NCBI GenBank assembly: GCA_010356995.1 | Contig: ML996704.1 | Coordinates: forward strand, 682,001 to 746,000 | From: Trichodelitschia bisporula | Lineage: Eukaryota | DNA: 64,000 nucleotides | Direction: 5' to 3' | Part shown: piece after piece, positions 10,157 through 63,640 of the stretch | Numbering within the stretch: the stretch's first letter is position 1 | How the letters are laid out: each line of letters begins with the position of its first letter | The notes under the pieces: model-generated | What the model was told of the DNA's origin: nothing | Database searches by the model: none | What the model saw: the letters and a program-made list of their open reading frames with translations, nothing else | Translations under genes and position numbers: made by a program

Positions 10157-11247
10157 TCATGAAGGGCTAACCGGGCTCCCAGGCGCCTTGCTCTTCCGGC
10201 GCTTGGCCCGAAGTGTCGCATTCGCACTGGCAGGAGTCTTCCCAAGCCCACTAGCCTTCCGCGGCAACTCCGTCTTGATAGGCGGCGGAGTAGGCCTTGC
10301 CGCCGCCGCCGCCGCCGCAGCCGCAGCAGCAGCCGTCTCCTGCGTCTTGGTCAGGGCCGCCTGCTTCGCCTGCTGCTGCGCCTGCGTGTACGCGTGCGTA
10401 GACTTGAACATGAACCCGCTCGGATCGCCCACCAGCGGGTTCTCGTCCATGTATTCGCCGCCGTAGCGTAGGGAGAGTTGGAGCGAGCGCCAGAGCGCTG
10501 CTTCCTGCATGTATTTCTCACGGTCTTGGGGGGCTGTGCTGGATGTTGAGGCCTGGGAGGGTTGTGGGGCCTGGCTCTCGGGGGCTGGGGTGCCGGCTTT
10601 GCTGCCCATTGTTGACTCGAGGTCGCTGCGTGGGGTCTTGGTGACGGGTTGCCGGTAGCTGTAGCCGCCGCCGGGGCTCCAGAGCTGTGTCTGGTTGGCG
10701 GTCTCAAAAACTTGACCGATGTTGTTGACGACGGAAATCTAGCCATTAGTTAACTCCCAAGTGTACGCGGCCAACCTACCAGCCGGTTGGCGAGCATGTC
10801 CCCTAGTGACGGCGCCTGGTAAATGTTCTCGCTGACGGCAAAGTAGGTGCCCAGGATTGTGATGTCATCCTCGTCATCACCCTTCTGCCGCAGATGTTTC
10901 CGAATCGTCCACACAGGATTCATGGTCTCGGTCGTTTGTGTAGGCCCGTCGACGATCATGTACTCGATGCCGTTCATCCCGCGGAGGCGCTGCTCAAAGT
11001 CTTGCCGGTTCTGCAGGATGGCTGCGATGCCAGGGTTCGCGCGAGCCTGAAGCTCCAAGTTCTTGTTGTTGGACATGTTATCGCAGAAGGGCGAGTTGAG
11101 GAAGTAGAGGTGAACTGGATGGTTAACGGGATCACGGCAGGTACCTGTGGACGTACTGTTCTCTGCGCGAATGCCGCCGTAGAAGGCGACAGCCATTGGT
11201 TGGCGCCATTGCAGCTCATCGAGCGGGATTTGCTTGATGTCGGCCAT
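10157..11247 (-). CDS. MED6: Mediator of RNA polymerase II transcription subunit 6
   Basis: PLDELQW, YFLNSPFCD..SNN, LRGMNGIEY, VWTIRK, YFAVSENIYQAPSL, EYMDENPLVGDP; two introns. Confidence 0.92.
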
Positions 11248-13508: not shown

Positions 13509-15429
13509 ATGGAACCGGAAGAACGCTCTACGCACGGCCCTCCGGCTTCCAAGGCTAGTACCTCTGAGCACAAGCCCCTCGCTGCCAAGGACAAGGCTGG
13601 GGATCCACCGCCCTCTTACGCCCAGAGCTCCGACAACTTTTACGAGCTCATCAAACCAGACGGTTGCGAGCCCCGTTCTTACACTTAGGATAATACCACC
13701 AACTCCTTCACTTACAAGGGCTTGAAGCACTGAGACTCCGAGGACCCCAAGTCTTCAACTCCGGCTTCCCTTTCTGAGGAAATCATCGCCGAAGGGTCTG
13801 AGGACGACATGGCTAACCGGGGCAAGAAGAAGAAGACGAAGAGCGAGTTGAAGAAGCTGCAGAAGGCCTTGGCTGAGCAGAACGCCGGCAACCAGGCTCC
13901 CCAGGACAAGAATGCAAAGGCGATGGAGCCTGCCCAGGGAGAAAATGCCAAGAACATCAAGCCTCCCCAGGATCAGGAGCTGGACGTCAAGAAGCGCGCC
14001 AATGTTCCGATGCCGGACGTCAAGAAGCACGACAATCTTCCGAAGCCGGCCACCCCGAAGCGCGACAATACTCCGAAGCCAAAGGCCACGACGCTCGAAT
14101 TCATGATGGGGACGTCCGATGCTGTGGATAACATGCTTGAGGCCGAGCTCCGGTACGCTGAGGAGGCGCACAAGGCTAAAGTTGCGTCGCGCATGGCTAC
14201 CCCTGAGAAGTTTCAAGATGTGCCGACGATCATCGGTGTCGCGCCGAACGGGGAGGAGTTCTTGCCAGAGCTCGCGCCCTCCATCAAGTGGAGGTCGAGG
14301 CGGGTCGAGCAGATGAAGGAAGCCAAGTCAAGCGGTGATCAAACTGCGAAGTCGTACACGGATCCCAACAACGTGAGTAGTTCTCAGAGCGTGAATCTGG
14401 CACAAGGAACTGACCCTGCAGAAGTCCAATCAAGACATTCCGAAACTTTGTGAAGGTGTGCGCAAGATCATGGTCCCTCGGACGACGGACGGAGAGAAGC
14501 AGCAGATCAAAAGCCCTGGGAAGCGGCGTAAGTGTTGGCCTAAGGAGTAGCACAAGAATCGCTCACTAACAGAGGATAAAGCAGCGCCTCCGCTGGACGA
14601 AGCTGCCCAGGAGCTGGATGGACTTACGCAGCTTGCAGAAAAACAGCTCGAAACCCAGCGCGCCATGATCGGCTATCTCCGCCGCGAAGTGAGCGCCCTG
14701 CGCTACATCAAAGACTATCTGTCCGACAAGGCCGAAAAGCAGGCTCTGATGATCGGCACTCTCACGCGTGCCAACGACAGACTCAATCGGCACCTGTTGA
14801 CCTTGGAGCCCTACTTCGAGGCTAGGAACAACCCAGAGGCCAATCTTGCCGAGCTCCACCGCAAACACGAACATCTCGTCGAAAACCTTCGCACGGGCGA
14901 CGCAAAGGCCTTCGCCACCACCGCCGGTGTGACGCGTCGGCACTGGGAGGTCGCGGCCGAGGAAGTTCATGGCATGTGGGTGGATGCGGCGTCGCGCTCG
15001 CAGGCGGCTTGGAAGCGCTCCCCGGAGTACAAGGATCGTGCTTGGCCTTACCTGGGTGGAGATGGCAAGCCCATCGGCCCGAAGGAATCTGACCCTGCGT
15101 CGGACATTGGGTCGGACAACTCGGTTGGTTTCAGCAACATCTCCCGTAGTCCCGGTGGGAGCGGAGGTAAGCCGGTTCGTCCGTGGGCGCCTGTCACTTC
15201 GGCTGGCGAGGAGTCCTCTGGTAGCCAGGCGGAGCCTGAGAACCAGGAGCCGGCGAATATCTGGAAGAGCACGGCGACCAATGTGGAGACCACATGGCTG
15301 AAAGCCGGCCACAAGGTCTCGGATGCTTGGGTCAAGATGAAGGGTGAAGCATACGGCAAGTATCGCGATACCAATGTCGAGACGAGTGATGAGACCAACA
15401 CCGACACCGAGACCGAGGAGGACGAGTAA
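13509..15429 (+). CDS. Hypothetical charged/coiled-coil protein, multi-exon; start uncertain (13509 or 13809)
   Basis: ORFs 13809-14453 and 14665-15429 join in frame through introns GTGAGT..CTGAC..CAG (~14373-14420) and GTAAGT..CTAACAG (~14528-14572). Confidence 0.65.
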
Positions 15430-17773: not shown

Positions 17774-18435
17774 GAGTTGGAGGGCTGGCTTAAATGATTG
17801 CTGTCAGTGTAATTTCTTCTTGTTTGATGTCTTGGTGCAGACAGTGTTGGCGAAATGAAGGACGGGCGCCAAATGTAAATACATTCGCAATTCAGAGTGC
17901 CTCTGCGTTCTGTGATCACTCTTTCGCGTTTCTCGGGACTCTTAGCCGGAGCTCCTTGAGCCAAAGTCACGGAAAATGTGTCCAGTCCCAATAGCGGCAT
18001 ACAGTGCTGGCCATATCTGCACTTTGTCAATGAGTGAACATTAACGCTCACATCGCAAAAAGTTACGTGGCCAGTGGTGAACAACAGTCTCCCCGGAACC
18101 GGAGTTGCAGCTTCCTGGTAGTCTGATTCCCTGGAAATGATACCGGGTTTGAGTGCTAAACCGATAATTCACTTTCAAGCTTCTCCAGGCACTATTAAAA
18201 TATCGAAATAGCGGAGGGGACAGGATTGATGCTGTAAAGCCTTGATCACGTTTCCTCTGACGTTCAAATTGGCCCATCTCGTTATTAGTGCCTTATTCTT
18301 GCCTGAAGATCAAGGCATAAGGTCGCGTCGCGTCGCCGAACCTCCGATGAGATCACTTCAAGCCACTGCATGCCCCTCACTCTGTATTGATCTGCATTTC
18401 GAACTCGTAACTTTTTGCGGCGAGCTCCTAGCAAC

Positions 18436-19819
18436 ATGGAGTCCCTATGCAGTACGCTGCATTTGGGTGAGAAGACTATTCATGGCAAGCACCAGCTCAA
18501 TTCTTGCTCTGCAACGGCTAACTCGCACAGATCTCCACCTTCATCCTGCTGGCGCTCCGACAGCATCTTCGAACCCACAGCCCCTCGAATTGACCCTCCT
18601 AGCCCTCGTCGACCCCTCTCGGATCCCATTATACCTAGCCTGCGGCCCCAGCTACCATGTCTACAGCGGATCCGAAGAGACGGAGGAATGGCTCAGCGAT
18701 ACCCTCTTCAGCACCCCGATAGCGAGCGATGGGAGCTGCTCGGAGACATGGTGGACCACCGGAACGCGACAGTCGGCGGTTGGAGTCCTCGTACGGATTG
18801 TACCGACACCAGAGAACCAGAAAGTGCTCCGCAAAGCGACAGAACTTCTGTTCTACGGAGTGATGGAAGGCCTGGATGGCAACTATCCCATCCCATCGTC
18901 AGATACGGCGACCGGTGACGCCTCAACCGCACAGCATGAACCTGTTTTCCGCGTCCGCGCATTACCCTTATGCTCAGACATCCACGCCCTCATCAACACC
19001 CCCCTCTCCCCGCCCCTCTCCCCCGCCCTCCCCGCAACCGAAGACGGAGCCCAATTCCTCCCCTCCTTCCAGGAAATGAAAGCCACCGCCCTCGCCACCC
19101 AAAACAAGCGCAAATACGTCGCAGACATGTTCGATGCCGCCACCGAGCGACGCAAGAAGGCAAAACGGGAAGGCGGACAGAGCGTGTCTGCCGCAGCCGC
19201 ACGACTAGACCCCATCCGGCCCGTGACGAGCTACATGTCGCAGCCGAATTCACCGCTCGAGGAGACGCAGGCCGAGTCTGGGGCTCGTGAGCGGGATCCC
19301 AGGCGCCATGTCGCGAGGTCGCGCAGTGTGTCTGAGAATCTGCTTGGGAGGAAGGGGTTGCTGGATGGGCCGGTAAAGCGCTCGCCTCTGTCGCGCGTGC
19401 AGACTAGTGCGGCGCTTGTGTCGGAGGATATCACTGAGGCTAAGAATAAGGAGACGTTGTCCAGGCTTGTCATGGCGGGAATGCGCTTCTATGGCTTGAC
19501 ACAGCGCAAGAAGCGGACGAGTCGCCACCCGTCTATGGCCTCTATCGACTTGGCGGGGATGGATAAGCCTCTGGCAGAGGAGGATGGCGACAAGGATGAG
19601 GAGTACAAGCTCGTGTATCACCAGGCGTACAAAACTTCAGCATTCGCATTCGTAAGTCGTCAATTGGTAGAAGTCCCGCGACACAATACTAATACATTAC
19701 AGAGAAAGCACATAGCCACCACACTCCTCCAACCCTCGCAGTTACAAGCCACAATTGACCGCATCCTCTCCCTCCTATGCACCGATCCCCTCGCCTCGCC
19801 CCTTATCCCAAGCGAATGA
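18436..19819 (+). CDS. Sld7 C-terminal-domain-like protein (putative replication factor)
   Basis: C-terminal NKETLSRLVMAGMRFYGL...EEYKLVYHQAYKTSAFAF|RKHI...LQATIDRILSLLC resembles fungal Sld7_C; likely ATG 18436 with a first intron. Confidence 0.7.
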
Positions 19820-20796: not shown

Positions 20797-20903
20797 TGAC
20801 AAGAGTGGGATTCGAACCCACGCCTATTACTAGACCAGCACGTTCAACTCCGCTAAGAAGTCGAACCTGAAGCTGGCGCCTTAGACCGCTCGGCCATCTT
20901 GCC
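20797..20903 (-). tRNA. tRNA-Leu(CAG) with intron
   Basis: GGCAAGATGGCCGAGCGGTCTAAGGCGCCAGC-TT-CAG-G[intron]TGCTGG...GGTTCGAATCCCACTCTTGTCA followed by a T run. Confidence 0.93.
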
Positions 20904-21477: not shown

Positions 21478-21576
21478 GGCAAGGTGGCCGAGTTGGTTAA
21501 GGCGTCAGGTTAAGGTCTACCTTAGCACAATATCCTGATTCAGAAATGAGCACGAGTTCGAATCTCGTCCTTGTCA
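21478..21576 (+). tRNA. tRNA-Leu(AAG) with intron
   Basis: GGCAAGGTGGCCGAGTTGGTTAAGGCGTCAGG-TT-AAG-G[17-nt intron]TCCTGA...GTTCGAATCTCGTCCTTGTCA. Confidence 0.93.
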
Positions 21577-56201: not shown

Positions 56202-56293
56202 GCGTTGGTGGTTTAGTGGTAAAATCCGTCGTTGCCATCTCTGCCTCAAGAGGACGATTCGACGGGCCCCGGGTTCGATTCCCGGCCGACGCA
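56202..56293 (+). tRNA. tRNA-Gly(GCC) with intron
   Basis: GCGTTGGTGGTTTAGTGGTAAAATCCGTCG-TT-GCC-A[intron]TCGACGGGCCCCGGGTTCGATTCCCGGCCGACGCA followed by TTTTT. Confidence 0.92.
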
Positions 56294-58542: not shown

Positions 58543-60370
58543 GGTGGCTTGGAGGGGAAGGGGATCGGCGGTAGAAAGACAGCATGAAGATTGCGGGCCA
58601 GAGGGCACGGCATTAATGGCTTAAGTGAACGTGTATGCGGCAATGGTTGTGCCCATGTGAGCTAGAACTAAATGTTCGTATTCTCGGGTGGGGGAAGGGC
58701 GGTAATGACGGGGTGAGTTGACTAGCAGGGGAAAGACAGATGGTGGTAAAAGAAGGACGGATAGTGGATGGAGAGAGGTTCAAAACATCGAGGCGGACAA
58801 ATGCGGATGGAACGACATCGTCCCTAGTCCGACTGTGGCATAGAAGATGTGATGAGGATTCAGACGTTATCGGGACCCCGGGGAGTGAAGCGGGGGAGGG
58901 TGGTGAGGAAAGGGAGGACAGGAAACTACCAAGATACAGCCCCACGCAGTGAGCTCCGAAGGTGTGGACGGCGTCAGACATCGCCACCACCATCATCTCG
59001 ACTTGGGCAATGCCCGTGGAGCATCCAGGGCAGCCAGTCGTCTGCCCGGTTGGCCTGTTAGCGGGGAACGGCAGAGTATCAGTCATCACGATTGGGACGC
59101 CATCGTCGAAACCAAGCGACAGTCGGCCAAACTCCCGCCGAGGGGGGGAACGGCGCGGGAACGCCTGCGGAGGGCTTTTTCCAGGTTACCTCCACAGGGC
59201 TGAAAATGGCTGGCGGACTGTTGAAGTAAAGACAAAAAAGCAGGCAGGACATCTAGGCCCGTGGTCCAGGAGCTAGAGCGTAGAGTTGCCGTCACCAACA
59301 TGCGTGTTTGACAGCAATGGCTTATGCAGTCCCACAATGCTGATCTTTGTCAATTGAAGCCCGGCGGGCAGGAGTTGGCGACACGGAGGGCTGGTGGAGA
59401 CAAGACGCGATTCTGCAGAAGCAGCACAGAGATGCCGTCGCCTCGCGGAGGGCGTCCGGGCCTATCGGCTGCGTTGCTGGGGTCTGGGCAGGTTCGTGTC
59501 TGGCACGCCGTGGCTTGGACACCATCGGGGAGATCGGCATTGTCTGCTACGGATTGAGATACACGGTAGCGGGTGACCAATCGGCTTGCCAGGTTTGAAG
59601 GGCACCAGCCAGTTGGAGGCGGCAGAGAGATGACGGCGTTGTGAGGATCTGGATATTAAACTTTCGCATTGCGGCATGCCGTTGTTTAGGGGTGATGAGA
59701 TGGATAGCGCCCGGTAGTGCTCGCAGTGTGCAGTAGCGAAAGAGCATAAATCAATGACATCAGACCGTGGATACACGAAAGAGGAAGGTATTTATTGGAA
59801 CTCTCACATAATCACTTCTGCCGACCAAACGGCGTTCCTCCCGTACTCCAATACAGACACCTCTGCAACATATCCCAGTACGATGTATGTACCCCTCAGA
59901 TAGGCAATGCGGAGAAGAGGTAAAACGACGGGGAGCTTGTTGGCGATGGTGGTGGAGCATGTTTATTTTGAGTGCGAAGTCTAGCGTAGTCAAAAGCCAT
60001 GCAAAAGGGCTTGTCCCAGCCCCTGGCCGGCATCGGATCCGTGCTGAAACTTGGCAAGCATATCAAAAAGCACGACCCCGGCATCCCCCTTTTCGAGTTG
60101 CACAAGTCAGCCTCGTTCGCGACGCCATCCTCGCATTGGCTGACGACGTCAGAGACATCGCAGAACACACGGGCGTAACCCCTACGGTACATTTTTACTG
60201 TAATTCGGGAAATTTTAAACTGCAATACAGACGCTGTGTTGTATGTGTCATATCCTTCACTTAGAACTGCCTTTTTTCAACTGCAATACGGACGCTCGTA
60301 TATCACGTATTGCAGCTCAAAACATGCCCGATTGCAGTTCAAAATTTGCACGATTGCAGTTCGAAAGTTG

Positions 60371-61148
60371 GGGACCTACTAGAAAAACAGGTCAACGTTT
60401 ATTACATCAACAGCCCGCAGATCAGCCAATCACGCGATAGAAACGCACGTTAACGTCAAAAACGCAAAGGCAATCAGAAAGTCTACTCCCATCAAAAAGT
60501 CATCAAAAGAGTTATTCGAAAGGCGCCGAGACCAATGTCAAAAGATGTGACTCATCAGGACGATGCGATAGCCAAATTATCGCAATTTTGTATTAAGGTT
60601 TGGTGCGTGCATCCCGTGTTGAAGTTTTGACCTCAGATTTTGGTGGGGTAAGAGCGCCAAGATTTCCCTGCACGCCACAGCCACGCTAAAGCCACGCGCA
60701 GGGATATAATCATCATCCTAACCCTAATCAGCTAATGCCAACCCTAATTTAGCCTTAACGTACTAAACTAACCCTAACTTTAACTGGATGCAGCAACTCA
60801 GACCTCGGCGCCAAGCAGCTGGCTTGTGACGTGCGGATAGCCTTGGCGCCAATACAGCCACACGAGCCGCACGTGCAGCCACGCCAAACTTCAAAACGCG
60901 ATGCACGCCTCAAGAGTAATCAAAAACACTCGTTCTTAATGAAAATCGACTTGCCTTGATGAGCTGCATCTTTTGACATCAATCTTGGTGCTTTTTGGAT
61001 GATTCTTTTGGCACCAAATTTTGATGAGGCGTGGCTGATGCGACAACCTTGCGATTGGCTCAAAAGTCTTGACTTCCTTGCGTGTCATTAGCTGATCACA
61101 GCCCGCCTGTCGATGTAACAAACGTCTACCTGTTTTTCTAGTAACTCC
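60371..61148. mobile_element. Nested non-autonomous Mutator-like (MULE) element
   Basis: Imperfect ~260-bp inverted arms starting GGA..TACTAGAAAAACAGGT; perfect 9-bp TSD CGAAAGTTG (60362-60370, 61149-61157). Confidence 0.85.
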
Positions 61149-61287
61149 CGAAAGTTGCACTCAAAACATGCGCAATTGCAGTTCAAAAGTTGCTCAAATG
61201 CAGTAATCCGCGTCCCTATACGCTTTCTGTAACCGTATTAGCATGGGCTCGCGTGAGTAGATAGGATAAGGGATAGGAGACTTACCG

Positions 61288-61442
61288 GAGACGCGACGAG
61301 AGGCGAGACGAGACAAGAGAGACGAGACGAGACGAGACGAGACGAGACGAGACAAGAGAGACGAGATGAGACGGGACGAGACAAGAGAGACGAGAGAGAC
61401 GAGAGAGACGAGAGAGACGAGAGAGACGAGACGAGAGAGAGA
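61288..61442 (+). repeat. (GAGAC)n/(GAGAGAGAC)n microsatellite inside the outer transposon
   Basis: gagacgagacgagacgagac...gagagagacgagagagac. Confidence 0.9.
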
Positions 61443-62066
61443 AGAAATTTATCAACTTTCGCGTTCCGAGGAGAAAAAGTGGTTGCCGGGATTTTTGGTT
61501 AATTTGGCGTGCATAGCGGCAACGAGTTATTTTGGTATGCCGAGCCACACCTTGGTGTGGCTAGGCATGTAAACAACAAACAGCTTCAGACGCGCGCTGT
61601 GAGATGATTGCGTAGTTGCAGTAGAAAAAGTTACTGATTACACAAGTTTTTGATGCGCATTGTTGTATATTCATGATTGCAGTAGAAAACGGGCGGGATT
61701 GCAGTAATCCCTACGTAAAAAGTGTCAGATGACGGTTAGGTTTGGATTGCAGTGTGGAAATTACATGATTGCGTGGGGGTTTTGGCGTGATTACAGTAAG
61801 CACTAACAAAAACCGTCGGATTGCAGTAAAAATGTCCCGTAGGGAACTCAGCACGCTCAGCACGCCCTCCGACACGCCTTCAACAGACAATGGGGATGCT
61901 GCAAAGCGTGGCTTGCCTGTGTAACCGAACGATCATCGTTTAACATGTCCTCCCCGAAGCCGCGCCCGCCGTGATTCTGTGATATCAGTCCCTCGCTATC
62001 TCCATCTCTCCCACGTCATTCATTCTTGCCCAGTATCCAGACCAACATCCCCATACCGCCGCCAAA

Positions 62067-62538
62067 ATGCGCTTCGCAACACTCCTCGCCCTCCCCATCC
62101 TCGCCTTCGCGGCCCCCCAACCACTCACCGAAATCGCCCGCACACCCGAATCCTTCTCCTCTCTCGAAACGCGTTCCCTCGAAGAGCGCGCAACCTACGA
62201 CTGCGGAGTCAACGGCGGAACGCCGTACTGCTGCCAAGCGACATTCGCGGGCGACCTGCCGCCCATTATCTCGCTCGCGCATCTAACCGGCTTCCCGCTG
62301 AACCCGAATGATGTGAACTGCTTGCTGCGTAAGTGAGGTTCGTTGTTGAGAGGAGCACGTGCTGACTGAGAAGCTACGGCAGCGGATCCGTCGGCGCCGA
62401 CATGTCCGGGCAGTGTTATGTGCTGCCAGGTTGCTGGTGTGGTGAGTTGCGCTCAGTATGAGCAGTAGAGAGATGCTAATGGTGACTGTACAGCCGTTGG
62501 TCGCGGCCCTGTACTGCCAGGCGCCGAAGTTCGCGTAG
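62067..62538 (+). CDS. Class I hydrophobin, 2 introns
   Basis: Signal peptide; spliced Cys pattern C-x8-CC-x28-C-x12-C-x5-CC-x12-C. Confidence 0.85.
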
Positions 62539-63640
62539 AGAGGGGTATTCGCAGGTCGTTGGCATATTGAGGGTCAAAGTTCGCGGGGGAAAAGGCTGAT
62601 ACCATCATTATCCATTCCATTCCATAATCATAATCGTCAATCAATCAATCCATCAATGAATGAAAGCACGTTCTTCCCACGAACTCCCCCCGTCGCACAA
62701 CATCTTTCCCCGCCCCGCTGCACGTACGGGTACCCGCTCCCGCGCCGCACAGCATCTGCATGTCCACAAAGACTCTCAGACTCGCAGTATCCGCAGTCCA
62801 GATCGTTCCATCCCGCCCATAACGCCTGCGGCAAATCCCATATTCAGCAAAGATCGACGATGCAGCAAGAGCGCAAGAAGCACGCACTTCAGCCTTGCGG
62901 GTAGATCCGCCTCCGCAAATGACGGCTCTGATCACTAATATCGTCCATGTTTCAACAACGACTTCGTGAGTGTGTTGCTAGGATCGGATTCGTTCGCCAT
63001 GCGCGCTCGGTATGTCCTGACTCGTGAACATCCGAACCAGCTACATGCAGACTTCAACCTTCAAGAATATCAAGCCTTTTCGTAAATCACGCATCCATCA
63101 GCGCCTCCCTCACAGAGAGGCCATACGATGTCCACATCCGCGCGTCCAAACCATTCCCCCCACCAATCACCTCAGCCCGTTAATCGCGCCGCCAATCTCC
63201 GCAACCCAGATCTCAGGAATTATAATCCGGAGATACTGCGCCGTCCATTAGTTCGAAGTTGAAGTCCCAATAGGATTCGAACCCTGGCCACCGATCCAGG
63301 ATCACATTCGGCAGGATTGCGGGAGGATCGGGACTATCAACCCCGGTCCGCAGGCCATGGGTTCATGGGAAACCGACATGCGGCGCGGATTCACATACAA
63401 CCACATAAACGTGCGCCAAATGAGGCAATATCACTTTGCGAAGAGCACGCACTTATACCAATACCTTGAAGAAAAAAGCATAGCCGTAGCCGCTCGCTTA
63501 GGATTCTCAGAATTGCGCGCCTAACACCTTGCCGAAATATATCATTTGCCCGCCATATCGGCCACATACCGCATACAGTCGCACATACATGTCTTCCCTC
63601 AATATCCCGGTGCTTAACACCCCCCTCCCCGCGTCAATCA

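Follow-up and report, generated by a model that had tools for sequence, protein, structure and literature searches.

MULEs are recognized by terminal inverted repeats (TIRs) longer than 100 bp and by duplications of the target site (TSDs) measuring 8–10 bp, and they generate duplications of 8 or 9 bp, as in the case of Muta1 (PMC5225508). The Mutator MITEs listed for fungi have 9-bp TSDs and TIRs of about 115 bp at 81–93% identity (PMC3227409, Table 2). In the strict definition, MITEs are present in many copies that are uniform in size and sequence (PMC3227409, PMC6004678).

For relatives of CMC/CACTA, termini of the forms CACTA/CMCWR (plants) and CCC (animal TRC elements) are on record (PMC3227409, PMC1636069), and the TIR of TRC from Tribolium starts with CCCTAG (PMC1636069). 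TSD lengths are 2–5 bp across the CMC(T) group, EnSpm having 3 bp; the fungal EnSpm termini described in the same source are CAC..GTG, and those of CMCT are mostly CA..TG (PMC12730594). Among fungi, CMC was reported to be taxonomically limited, mainly to Basidiomycota and Mucoromycota, and uncommon in ascomycetes, and DNA transposons were reported to be few in Dothideomycetes (PMC5751038). Repbase assigns a non-autonomous element by equal TSD length and by alignment of terminal positions 1–11, in which one mismatch is allowed (PMC4455052).

A 64,000-nt stretch of Trichodelitschia bisporula DNA (the window) was analyzed; its closest protein match was to this species, at 94%. A nested pair of small non-coding elements was found in this dung-dwelling ascomycete (a Dothideomycete), in an intergenic position between two genes. 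Including the flanking AAC, the whole structure spans 60177–61847. The outer block (60180–61844, 1,665 bp) is richer in AT than its flanks. The GC content drops from 0.57 and 0.555 in the flanks to 0.40–0.47 inside, and the step-down coincides exactly with the boundaries of the outer element. We interpreted the structure as two fossil non-autonomous class II transposons, the inner one Mutator-like and the outer one probably CMC/EnSpm-like, and put the probability of this reading at roughly 0.7.

Contigs from two runs of one sample (X1 and X2), which is possibly the source itself and so not independent of the assembly, crossed all four element boundaries without differences. Therefore, the nesting is not peculiar to this assembly. 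The contigs broke at one place only in the structure, the GAGAC microsatellite within the outer element (61288–61440, period 5, 31.8 copies).

The ends of the outer element were as described in the earlier note. The TIR core (60180–60200 versus 61824–61844) is 21 nt long with one mismatch, and AAC is present on both sides, at 60177–60179 and 61845–61847. Extended without gaps, the TIRs are 28 nt long (60180–60207 on the plus strand and 61817–61844 on the minus strand), and 25/28 positions are complementary (89%). The outer ends read CCCTACGG.., giving the termini CCCTA..TAGGG. The TIR pattern had two matches in the window, against 0.01 expected. The AAC pair is a putative TSD of a length found in CMC, seen at a single insertion, and such 3-nt agreement at fixed positions has a chance of about 1/64.

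The recurrence of ATTGCAGT-type motifs near both outer ends, also pointed out before, was borne out by the counts. All nine exact matches in the window were located within 60219–61827 (1.55 expected), and none of 100 shuffles attained nine. When up to one mismatch was allowed, 14 of the 41 matches in the window fell in the 878 bases belonging to the outer element only, at 37-fold the density of the remaining window, and none fell in the inner element. After removal of the inner element, all 14 motifs lie within about 230 bp of the outer ends. Six are in the left subterminal region (60197–60360), three close to the tip in minus-strand orientation and then three on the plus strand at 22-nt spacing, which form a tandem period of 22 nt. 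Two more are in the remainder of this array (61158–61204), displaced by the inner insertion, and the right subterminal region (61615–61827) contains six, all on the plus strand.

In En/Spm elements, short motifs recur in either orientation over the few hundred bp next to the termini. The 14 motifs agree with this pattern; subterminal repeats are not exclusive to CMC/CACTA elements, a point that would favour an element of another kind.

The outer element is most likely CMC/EnSpm-like, an assignment that we do not regard as established. Its termini fit the CMCWR and CCC forms (PMC3227409, PMC1636069), and not the CAC..GTG and CA..TG described for fungi (PMC12730594). The earlier assignment to CMC/CACTA is plausible, as the CCCTA ends, the 3-bp duplication and the subterminal repeats fit it, and is weakened by the single copy in which the duplication was seen, by the fungal EnSpm ends on record and by the scarcity of CMC in ascomycetes (PMC12730594, PMC5751038).

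A possible, though doubtful, alternative is that the outer element is a genuine non-autonomous transposon of another superfamily with 3-bp TSDs (PIF/Harbinger, Academ or Zator), or of an uncatalogued lineage. The PIF/Harbinger target is TWA, and the outer duplication, AAC, does not fit it. Nor does AAC fit the TWY target of the Harbinger MITE of Epichloe (PMC3227409, Table 2). The distribution of the superfamilies speaks for this alternative, as PIF/Harbinger occurs throughout the fungi and most fungal taxa have Academ at low copy number, while CMC is limited (PMC5751038, Table 1). So does the departure of the termini from the fungal EnSpm ends described (PMC12730594), but CCCTA matches the CMCWR form and the CCC core of the non-plant CACTA relatives (PMC3227409, PMC1636069).

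Quite unlikely, in our estimate, is a reading of the outer element as what remains of a cut-and-paste lineage undescribed in Pezizomycotina, characterized by CCC..GGG ends, a 3-bp TSD and ATTGCAGT motifs as putative subterminal binding sites. Such a lineage would have a transposase that is either divergent but related to CMC, falling outside the known fungal EnSpm and Plavaka groups with their CAC..GTG or CATCA..TGATG ends, or something new. Horizontal transfer of such a lineage may explain an outer element without detectable sister copies.

Compared with the outer element and its short TIRs, the inner element (60371–61148 or 61149, 778 or 779 bp) is composed mostly of two long inverted arms. 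These had been put at about 260 bp, and proved longer. Local alignment of the left arm (60371–60702, plus strand) with the reverse-complemented right arm (60803–61149, minus strand) put each arm at about 330 nt; 239 positions matched, 72 were mismatched and 57 columns held gaps (77% identity). In the predicted fold, the element as single-stranded DNA forms one long hairpin (z = −8.0) with a central unpaired loop at 60703–60802. The three telomere-repeat-like octamers AACCCTAA that occur in the window, at 60720, 60740 and 60770, are all in this loop. A 15-nt core of the right arm, ACTAGAAAAACAGGT, had two matches in the window, against 0.01 expected.

The exact duplication that had been noted next to the arms, CGAAAGTTG, is present at 60362–60370 and 61149–61157. 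Its extent as a TSD is ambiguous: either 8 or 9 bp, with the right boundary of the element at 61149 or 61148, respectively. In the gapless register of the arms, 60371 pairs with 61149, and both tips read GGGA.. if the TSD is the 8-bp GAAAGTTG, which starts at 60363 on the left side. The 9-bp reading requires a 1-nt indel in the tip. The ends read GGGA..TACTAGAAAAACAGGT, and the tips differ at two of the first six positions.

The inner element was assigned as Mutator-like with reasonable confidence, because its arms, about 330 nt at 77% identity, are well within the TIR length of MULEs and the exact 9-nt repeat (8 bp with the tips in register), found in one copy, is within their TSD range. The same assignment had been made before on a 9-bp TSD; the superfamily is supported, and the TSD may be 8 bp.

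It is unlikely that the inner element came instead from a superfamily with an 8-bp TSD (hAT, Zisupton or P) or one of 8–9 bp (Merlin). The gapless register of the arms, with its matching GGGA tips, does favour an 8-bp TSD. The hAT tip consensus is YARNG, however, and GGGA is unlike it. Moreover, MULEs also give 8 or 9 bp, as Muta1 does (PMC5225508). Elements of the hAT superfamily occur throughout the fungi (PMC5751038), and one hAT MITE recorded from a fungus has an 8-bp TSD, but its TIRs are 10 nt long (PMC3227409, Table 2). TIRs of about 330 nt, as found here, are typical of MULEs (PMC5225508), so that of the hAT features an 8-bp TSD is possible, and short TIRs are absent.

The source copy of this Mutator-like element probably had diverged arms already, because 18 duplicated bases would otherwise be unlikely to have stayed intact. 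For arms identical upon insertion, the divergence of 0.116 per arm would leave all 18 unchanged with a probability of only about 0.11. RIP was considered as the source of the divergence and rejected, as transitions (35) were about as frequent as transversions (37) between the arms, and the dinucleotide indices of the inner element (0.73 and 1.34) resembled those of the window (0.65 and 1.20). The indices of the outer-only part were 0.91 and 0.97, in a short sequence that holds the GAGAC microsatellite. The conventional RIP thresholds are at about these values.

The order of the two insertions could be read from the left subterminal array. Excision of the inner element together with one copy of its flanking repeat recreated a 22-nt unit of the outer element, 20/22 identical to the neighbouring unit. 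The parts of the array on either side of the insertion (61160–61204 and 60316–60360) are 87% identical. The restored unit supports the order of outer first and inner second. This order had been claimed from a continuous restored array; the unit is indeed restored, and the array is not strictly periodic, with motif spacings of 22, 22, 35 and 22.

That the nested elements lack coding capacity, as the earlier note stated, was confirmed. The longest stop-to-stop frame wholly inside the structure has 100 aa and runs across the microsatellite, and none of 11 internal frames reached the curated cut-off of Pfam. Rfam gave no matches at E≤1 in 59000–63000. No transposase was found in the 35 ORFs scanned out of the 93 in the window that are at least 150 aa long. 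MULEs are mobilized by a MURA-type DDE transposase (Pfam MULE, PF10551, or Transposase_mut, PF00872), and CMC elements by a DDE transposase of their own type (Transposase_21, PF02992, with C(2)C and H(3-4)H motifs), in each case encoded by an autonomous partner with matching TIRs.

A search of the window with the outer element by BLASTN returned only itself and its internal repeats, the remaining matches having E≥0.31. No second outer copy was detected at a likeness of at least 80% in about 30 Mb of contigs assembled for the sample that is probably the source, a comparison that shows presence better than absence and could miss matches of TIR length. The metagenome contigs contained no exact match to the outer TIR and no match to the conserved core of the inner TIR. 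The inner arms had short, diverged matches on two other contigs in each run, namely 45 nt with 7 differences, 45 nt with 5 and 74 nt with 9. These matches coincide with the stretches in which the two inner arms are most alike. This suggested the existence of diverged relatives of the inner element. The sole joint seen was of the ‘opposite strands’ type, on a 602-nt contig that belongs to a diverged relative; it was considered as an excision allele and rejected.

The description of the pair as two families was therefore not sustained, as no outer copy was found at 80% or above and the inner arms were matched only in short, diverged stretches. For the same reason neither element is a MITE in the strict sense, as no outer copy at or above 80% and only inner-arm patches of 45–74 nt were found; absence from these contigs is weak evidence. 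With no close copy detectable for either of them, the two elements are probably relics that no longer move.

We also considered that no transposons are involved and that the structure consists of inverted and direct repeats that arose by chance or locally, such as by palindromic duplication within a promoter. Each element was seen only once, and a comparable inverted pair of 22 nt (91%) is present elsewhere in the window, at 10973 and 14580. An inverted pair of 21–28 nt is thus by itself not unique. Against this, an exact 9-nt direct repeat lies right at the ends of the 330-nt inverted repeat, an event expected at about 4e-6 per position pair, and a repeat unit is rebuilt when the inner element is taken out. 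The proposed boundaries also agree with the GC step, with the restriction of the motif arrays to both ends and with the diverged contig matches. Such an origin was therefore considered very improbable.

With two nested transposons as the preferred reading, the anatomy of the locus suggests the following course of events. An outer element of 878 bp would have inserted into ..GTAAC|TCAGC.. at a 3-nt staggered cut, duplicating AAC. Its ATTGCAGT arrays, within about 230 bp of the ends, would be the presumed binding sites of the transposase. As the restored repeat unit shows, a foldback-shaped Mutator-like element of 778 or 779 bp, with two diverged TIRs of about 330 nt around a 100-nt loop, then inserted into the left subterminal array at a staggered cut of 8 or 9 nt. 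This insertion divided the array into six motifs before and two after. The transposase for both elements would have been supplied in trans.

A small secreted cysteine-rich ORF starts about 220 bp downstream of the outer insertion, with its ATG at 62067, and the insertion may affect the promoter of this ORF. A hydrophobin was considered as its identity and rejected, as Pfam matched neither exon-like piece.

The structure is real but ordinary, and consists of known kinds of element. It indicates that the genome of a Dothideomycete which is little studied and poor in repeats contains non-coding class II relics of a sort that gene-based annotation would miss, and that the ends of one relic are CMC-like, in a class of fungi from which CMC has rarely been reported. 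Should sister copies and a matching transposase turn up, repeat libraries for fungi would gain two entries, and the known distribution of CMC in ascomycetes one data point.

Among described systems, the inner element resembles EFT-24m and EFT-26m of Epichloe festucae, which are non-coding, a few hundred bp long and mostly made up of long imperfect TIRs (PMC3227409). Those TIRs are 115 nt long at 81–93% identity with a 9-bp TSD, whereas the arms here exceed them both in length (about 330 nt) and in divergence (77% identity), with a TSD of 8 or 9 bp and a loop that contains three telomere-repeat-like octamers. The EFT-24m and EFT-26m families have 13–31 full copies and a parent, EFT-26 (PMC3227409); for the inner element neither a close copy nor a parent was found.

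The outer element resembles CACTA/EnSpm elements, including the animal TRC, in its short CCC/CCCTA TIRs and a TSD in the 2–3-bp range (PMC1636069, PMC12730594). Its subterminal motifs are a further likeness to En/Spm. The animal CCC elements duplicate 2 bp (PMC1636069), in contrast to 3 bp here, and the fungal EnSpm elements described end in CAC..GTG (PMC12730594), in contrast to CCC..GGG. The nesting itself is a standard situation. In the nested MULE insertions of maize and rice, an example of nesting used for relative dating (PMC3903597), one class II element likewise lies within another. The host element is interrupted while the duplication around the inner one is intact, and the order of events follows from this.

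The outer element (60180–61844) was bounded by 21-nt terminal inverted repeats (TIRs; 60180–60200 and 61824–61844) with one mismatch. Gapless extension brought them to 28 nt, of which 25 were complementary. With up to three mismatches allowed, the TIR pattern occurred at these two sites only in the 64 kb, against 0.01 expected from shuffled sequences, and AAC directly abutted the element at both ends. The observed layout that an earlier note had described at 60177–61847, an element with CCCTA ends and a second one nested inside it, was confirmed on direct reading with minor corrections. The only other inverted pair of similar quality in the window was 22 nt long and lay in GC-rich sequence (10973–10994 and 14580–14601; 91% complementary, 3.6 kb apart).

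All nine exact window copies of the subterminal motif ATTGCAGT lay within 60219–61827 (1.55 expected; none of 100 shuffles reached nine). When one mismatch was allowed, 14 of the 41 window matches fell in the 878 bases belonging to the outer element only (15.9 per kb, vs 0.43 per kb elsewhere), and none in the inner element. With the inner element removed, all ATTGCAGT-type motifs were at most about 230 nt from an outer end, and the three closest to the left tip were mirror-oriented relative to those at the right tip. GC content was 0.40–0.47 inside the elements, against 0.57 and 0.555 in flanking stretches of 200 nt and 0.58 in the whole window. A palindrome with a 15-nt stem and a 2-nt loop was also seen in the outer element at 61537–61568.

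The public data covering the stretch consisted of two sequencing runs (X1 and X2) of one sample, which is possibly the source of the window; they are not independent of it. Their contigs, assembled separately by the Logan project, crossed the left outer and both inner boundaries (59900–61286) and the right outer boundary (61427–62100) with no differences. The only place where they broke was inside the outer element, at a (GAGAC)n microsatellite (61288–61440; about 150 nt).

The inner element was flanked by an exact direct repeat, CGAAAGTTG, at 60362–60370 and 61149–61157. Its inverted arms, previously put at about 260 bp, were about 330 nt each by alignment, with 77% identity (239 matches, 35 transitions, 37 transversions and 57 gap columns). 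A 15-nt core, ACTAGAAAAACAGGT, was found near both tips and at those two sites only. As single-stranded DNA, the element was predicted to fold into one long hairpin (−143.9 kcal/mol vs −97.7 ± 5.8 for shuffles; z = −8.0). Three telomere-repeat-like AACCCTAA octamers, the only ones in the 64-kb window, were located in the central loop (60712–60785), adjoined by GGCGCC-containing motifs.

The flanking repeat, taken before as an exact 9-bp target site duplication (TSD), is exact, and its length reads as 8 or 9 bp. In the gapless register of the arms, 60371 pairs with 61149. The 8-bp reading (GAAAGTTG) keeps this register and starts both tips with GGGA; the 9-bp reading needs an indel of 1 nt among the six outermost bases of a tip. 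On sequence, the two lengths appear about equally likely, because the extra C has about a one-in-four chance of matching anyway.

Removal of the inner element rebuilt the repeat unit of the outer array. The junction-spanning 22-nt unit was identical to the preceding unit at 20 of 22 positions and to the unit at 61174 at 19 of 22, and 61160–61204 was an 87% copy of 60316–60360. The restored array was not strictly periodic, with motif spacings of 22, 22, 35 and 22 nt. There is good evidence in these repeats that the 9 nt were outer element sequence, duplicated on inner insertion. This fixed the order, with the inner element inserting second, and the earlier claim of nested transposons with this order was sound.

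Mutator-like elements (MULEs), described in a passage of PMC5751038 as ubiquitous in fungi, typically have 'long TIRs (>100 bp) and an 8-10 bp TSD', and a single MULE was shown to produce 8- and 9-bp duplications alike (both in a passage of PMC5225508). Table 2 of PMC3227409 gives 9-bp TSDs and TIRs of about 115 nt at 81–93% identity for fungal Mutator MITEs. The inner element had both the TIR length and the TSD length of a MULE, at 8 or 9 bp. A hAT element, or one of another superfamily with an 8–9-bp TSD, would agree with the duplication; we considered this improbable, mainly because TIRs of 330 nt contrast with the 10 nt that Table 2 of PMC3227409 gives for a fungal hAT MITE. The Mutator label given before was reasonable, and we put the probability that the inner element is Mutator-like at roughly 0.7.

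Both elements would be class II elements requiring a transposase in trans, since they have TIRs and target duplications and no ORFs. The outer element would have inserted via a 3-nt staggered cut, and its ATTGCAGT arrays are likely, putative binding sites of its transposase. Insertion of the inner element into the left array came later, with an 8- or 9-nt stagger, and displaced two of the eight left-hand motifs by 787 nt from the end. This would probably impair further mobilisation of the outer element.

Had the inner arms been identical at insertion, all 18 duplicated bases would have stayed intact with a probability of only about 0.11. The source copy therefore probably had arms that were no longer perfect repeats. 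RIP was rejected as the source of their divergence, as transitions (35) were roughly equal to transversions (37).

Both elements are non-coding, as claimed. The longest stop-to-stop frame fully inside them was 100 aa and crossed the microsatellite. The Pfam cut-off was reached by none of 11 frames (ten fully inside 60179–61844 and one extending 88 nt past the right end), and Rfam gave no match at E ≤ 1 across 59000–63000. The window held 93 stop-to-stop frames of at least 150 aa; the 35 scanned held ordinary fungal genes (P450, PUF, WD40, acyltransferase, Sld7, Mso1 and others), with no transposase among them. For the ORF at 18230–19816, the best protein match was from Trichodelitschia bisporula (94% identity) and the next was at 41%. 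The window thus belongs to this Dothideomycete or to a very near relation, and its close relatives are unsequenced. The species is listed with dung saprobes in a passage of PMC7082219.

The neighbours of the elements were a P450 gene (56647–58542, minus strand) and an ORF on the plus strand (62067–62465), which starts some 220 nt beyond the right end of the outer element. The latter had a signal-peptide-like start, an apparent short intron, and eight cysteines with C..CC..C / C..CC..C spacing reminiscent of hydrophobins; neither piece matched Pfam. The window contained 93 N, and an N run at about 56.6–56.9 kb, at the 3' end of the P450 gene, gave X in frames of both strands and is probably an assembly gap. 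ARAGORN placed a tRNA-Gly(GCC) at 56202–56293 (plus). Two divergent tRNA genes of about 100 nt (20797–20903, minus; 21478–21576, plus), seen as an inverted repeat and confirmed by Rfam, probably contain introns.

For other copies, about 30 Mb of X1 and X2 contigs were searched with 59900–62100 at an 80% likeness threshold. Such a search shows presence better than absence: a filter removes some records, and a copy sharing the 21–28-nt TIR alone would probably be missed. The outer-only parts matched no contig beyond those of the locus itself at this threshold. The inner element was matched at 60606–60650 by a 27.9-kb contig (18.0 kb in X2), with seven differences. A contig of about 600 nt matched 60654–60698 (opposite strand, five differences) and 60953–61026 (same strand, nine differences). 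It was in just these patches that the two arms resembled each other most. The loose ends following them shared short motifs with the window, e.g. GGCGCCAAG, and the GGCGCC-containing motifs were seen again there. Exact-pattern scans of a metagenome collection gave no match for either TIR. From these likenesses, we read the inner element as having diverged relatives elsewhere in the genome and the outer one as having no detectable relative. The proposal of two families was not supported, with no other outer copy in these contigs and only short diverged patches of the inner element. The earlier note had named the lack of other copies and of an empty site as grounds for refutation, and as far as these data reach this holds for the outer element. 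Neither element fits the strict definition of a MITE, which asks for a homogeneous family in high copy.

The concept of the CMC (CACTA/EnSpm-type) superfamily reportedly originated with Yuan & Wessler 2011. CACTA termini are quoted in a passage of PMC3227409 as CCC (citing DeMarco 2006) or, in plants, CMCWR (citing Feschotte 2008). Three animal elements in an excerpt of PMC1636069 have CCC-initial TIRs, one starting CCCTAG, and 2-bp duplications. A passage of PMC12730594 gives TSDs of 2–5 bp for the wider CMCT group. In its account, fungal EnSpm elements end in CAC..GTG and have 3-bp TSDs, Plavaka has CATCA or TGT termini, and the termini are CA..TG 'in most cases'. According to part of PMC5751038, CMC has a limited distribution in fungi, mainly in Basidiomycota and Mucoromycota, and Dothideomycetes have few DNA transposons. 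In Repbase, as a section of PMC4455052 has it, non-autonomous elements are assigned by equal TSD length and aligned terminal positions 1–11.

PIF/Harbinger fits the outer element poorly, as AAC mismatches its TWA/TWY target. Another or an unknown superfamily with a 3-bp TSD would agree with the AAC flanks and with termini that differ from the described fungal ones, and is rather unlikely. The CMC label given before is tentative, and a CMC-like origin falls a little short of an even chance.

The two elements are an ordinary pair of transposon relics, of kinds already known, of interest mainly for the repeat annotation of an obscure fungus. The outer element may be a CMC-like trace; the superfamily is rarely seen in this class. 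As judged from one copy, it is unlike the described fungal CMC lineages in its termini, but like CMC in its TSD length, its CMCWR/CCC terminus and its subterminal repeats.
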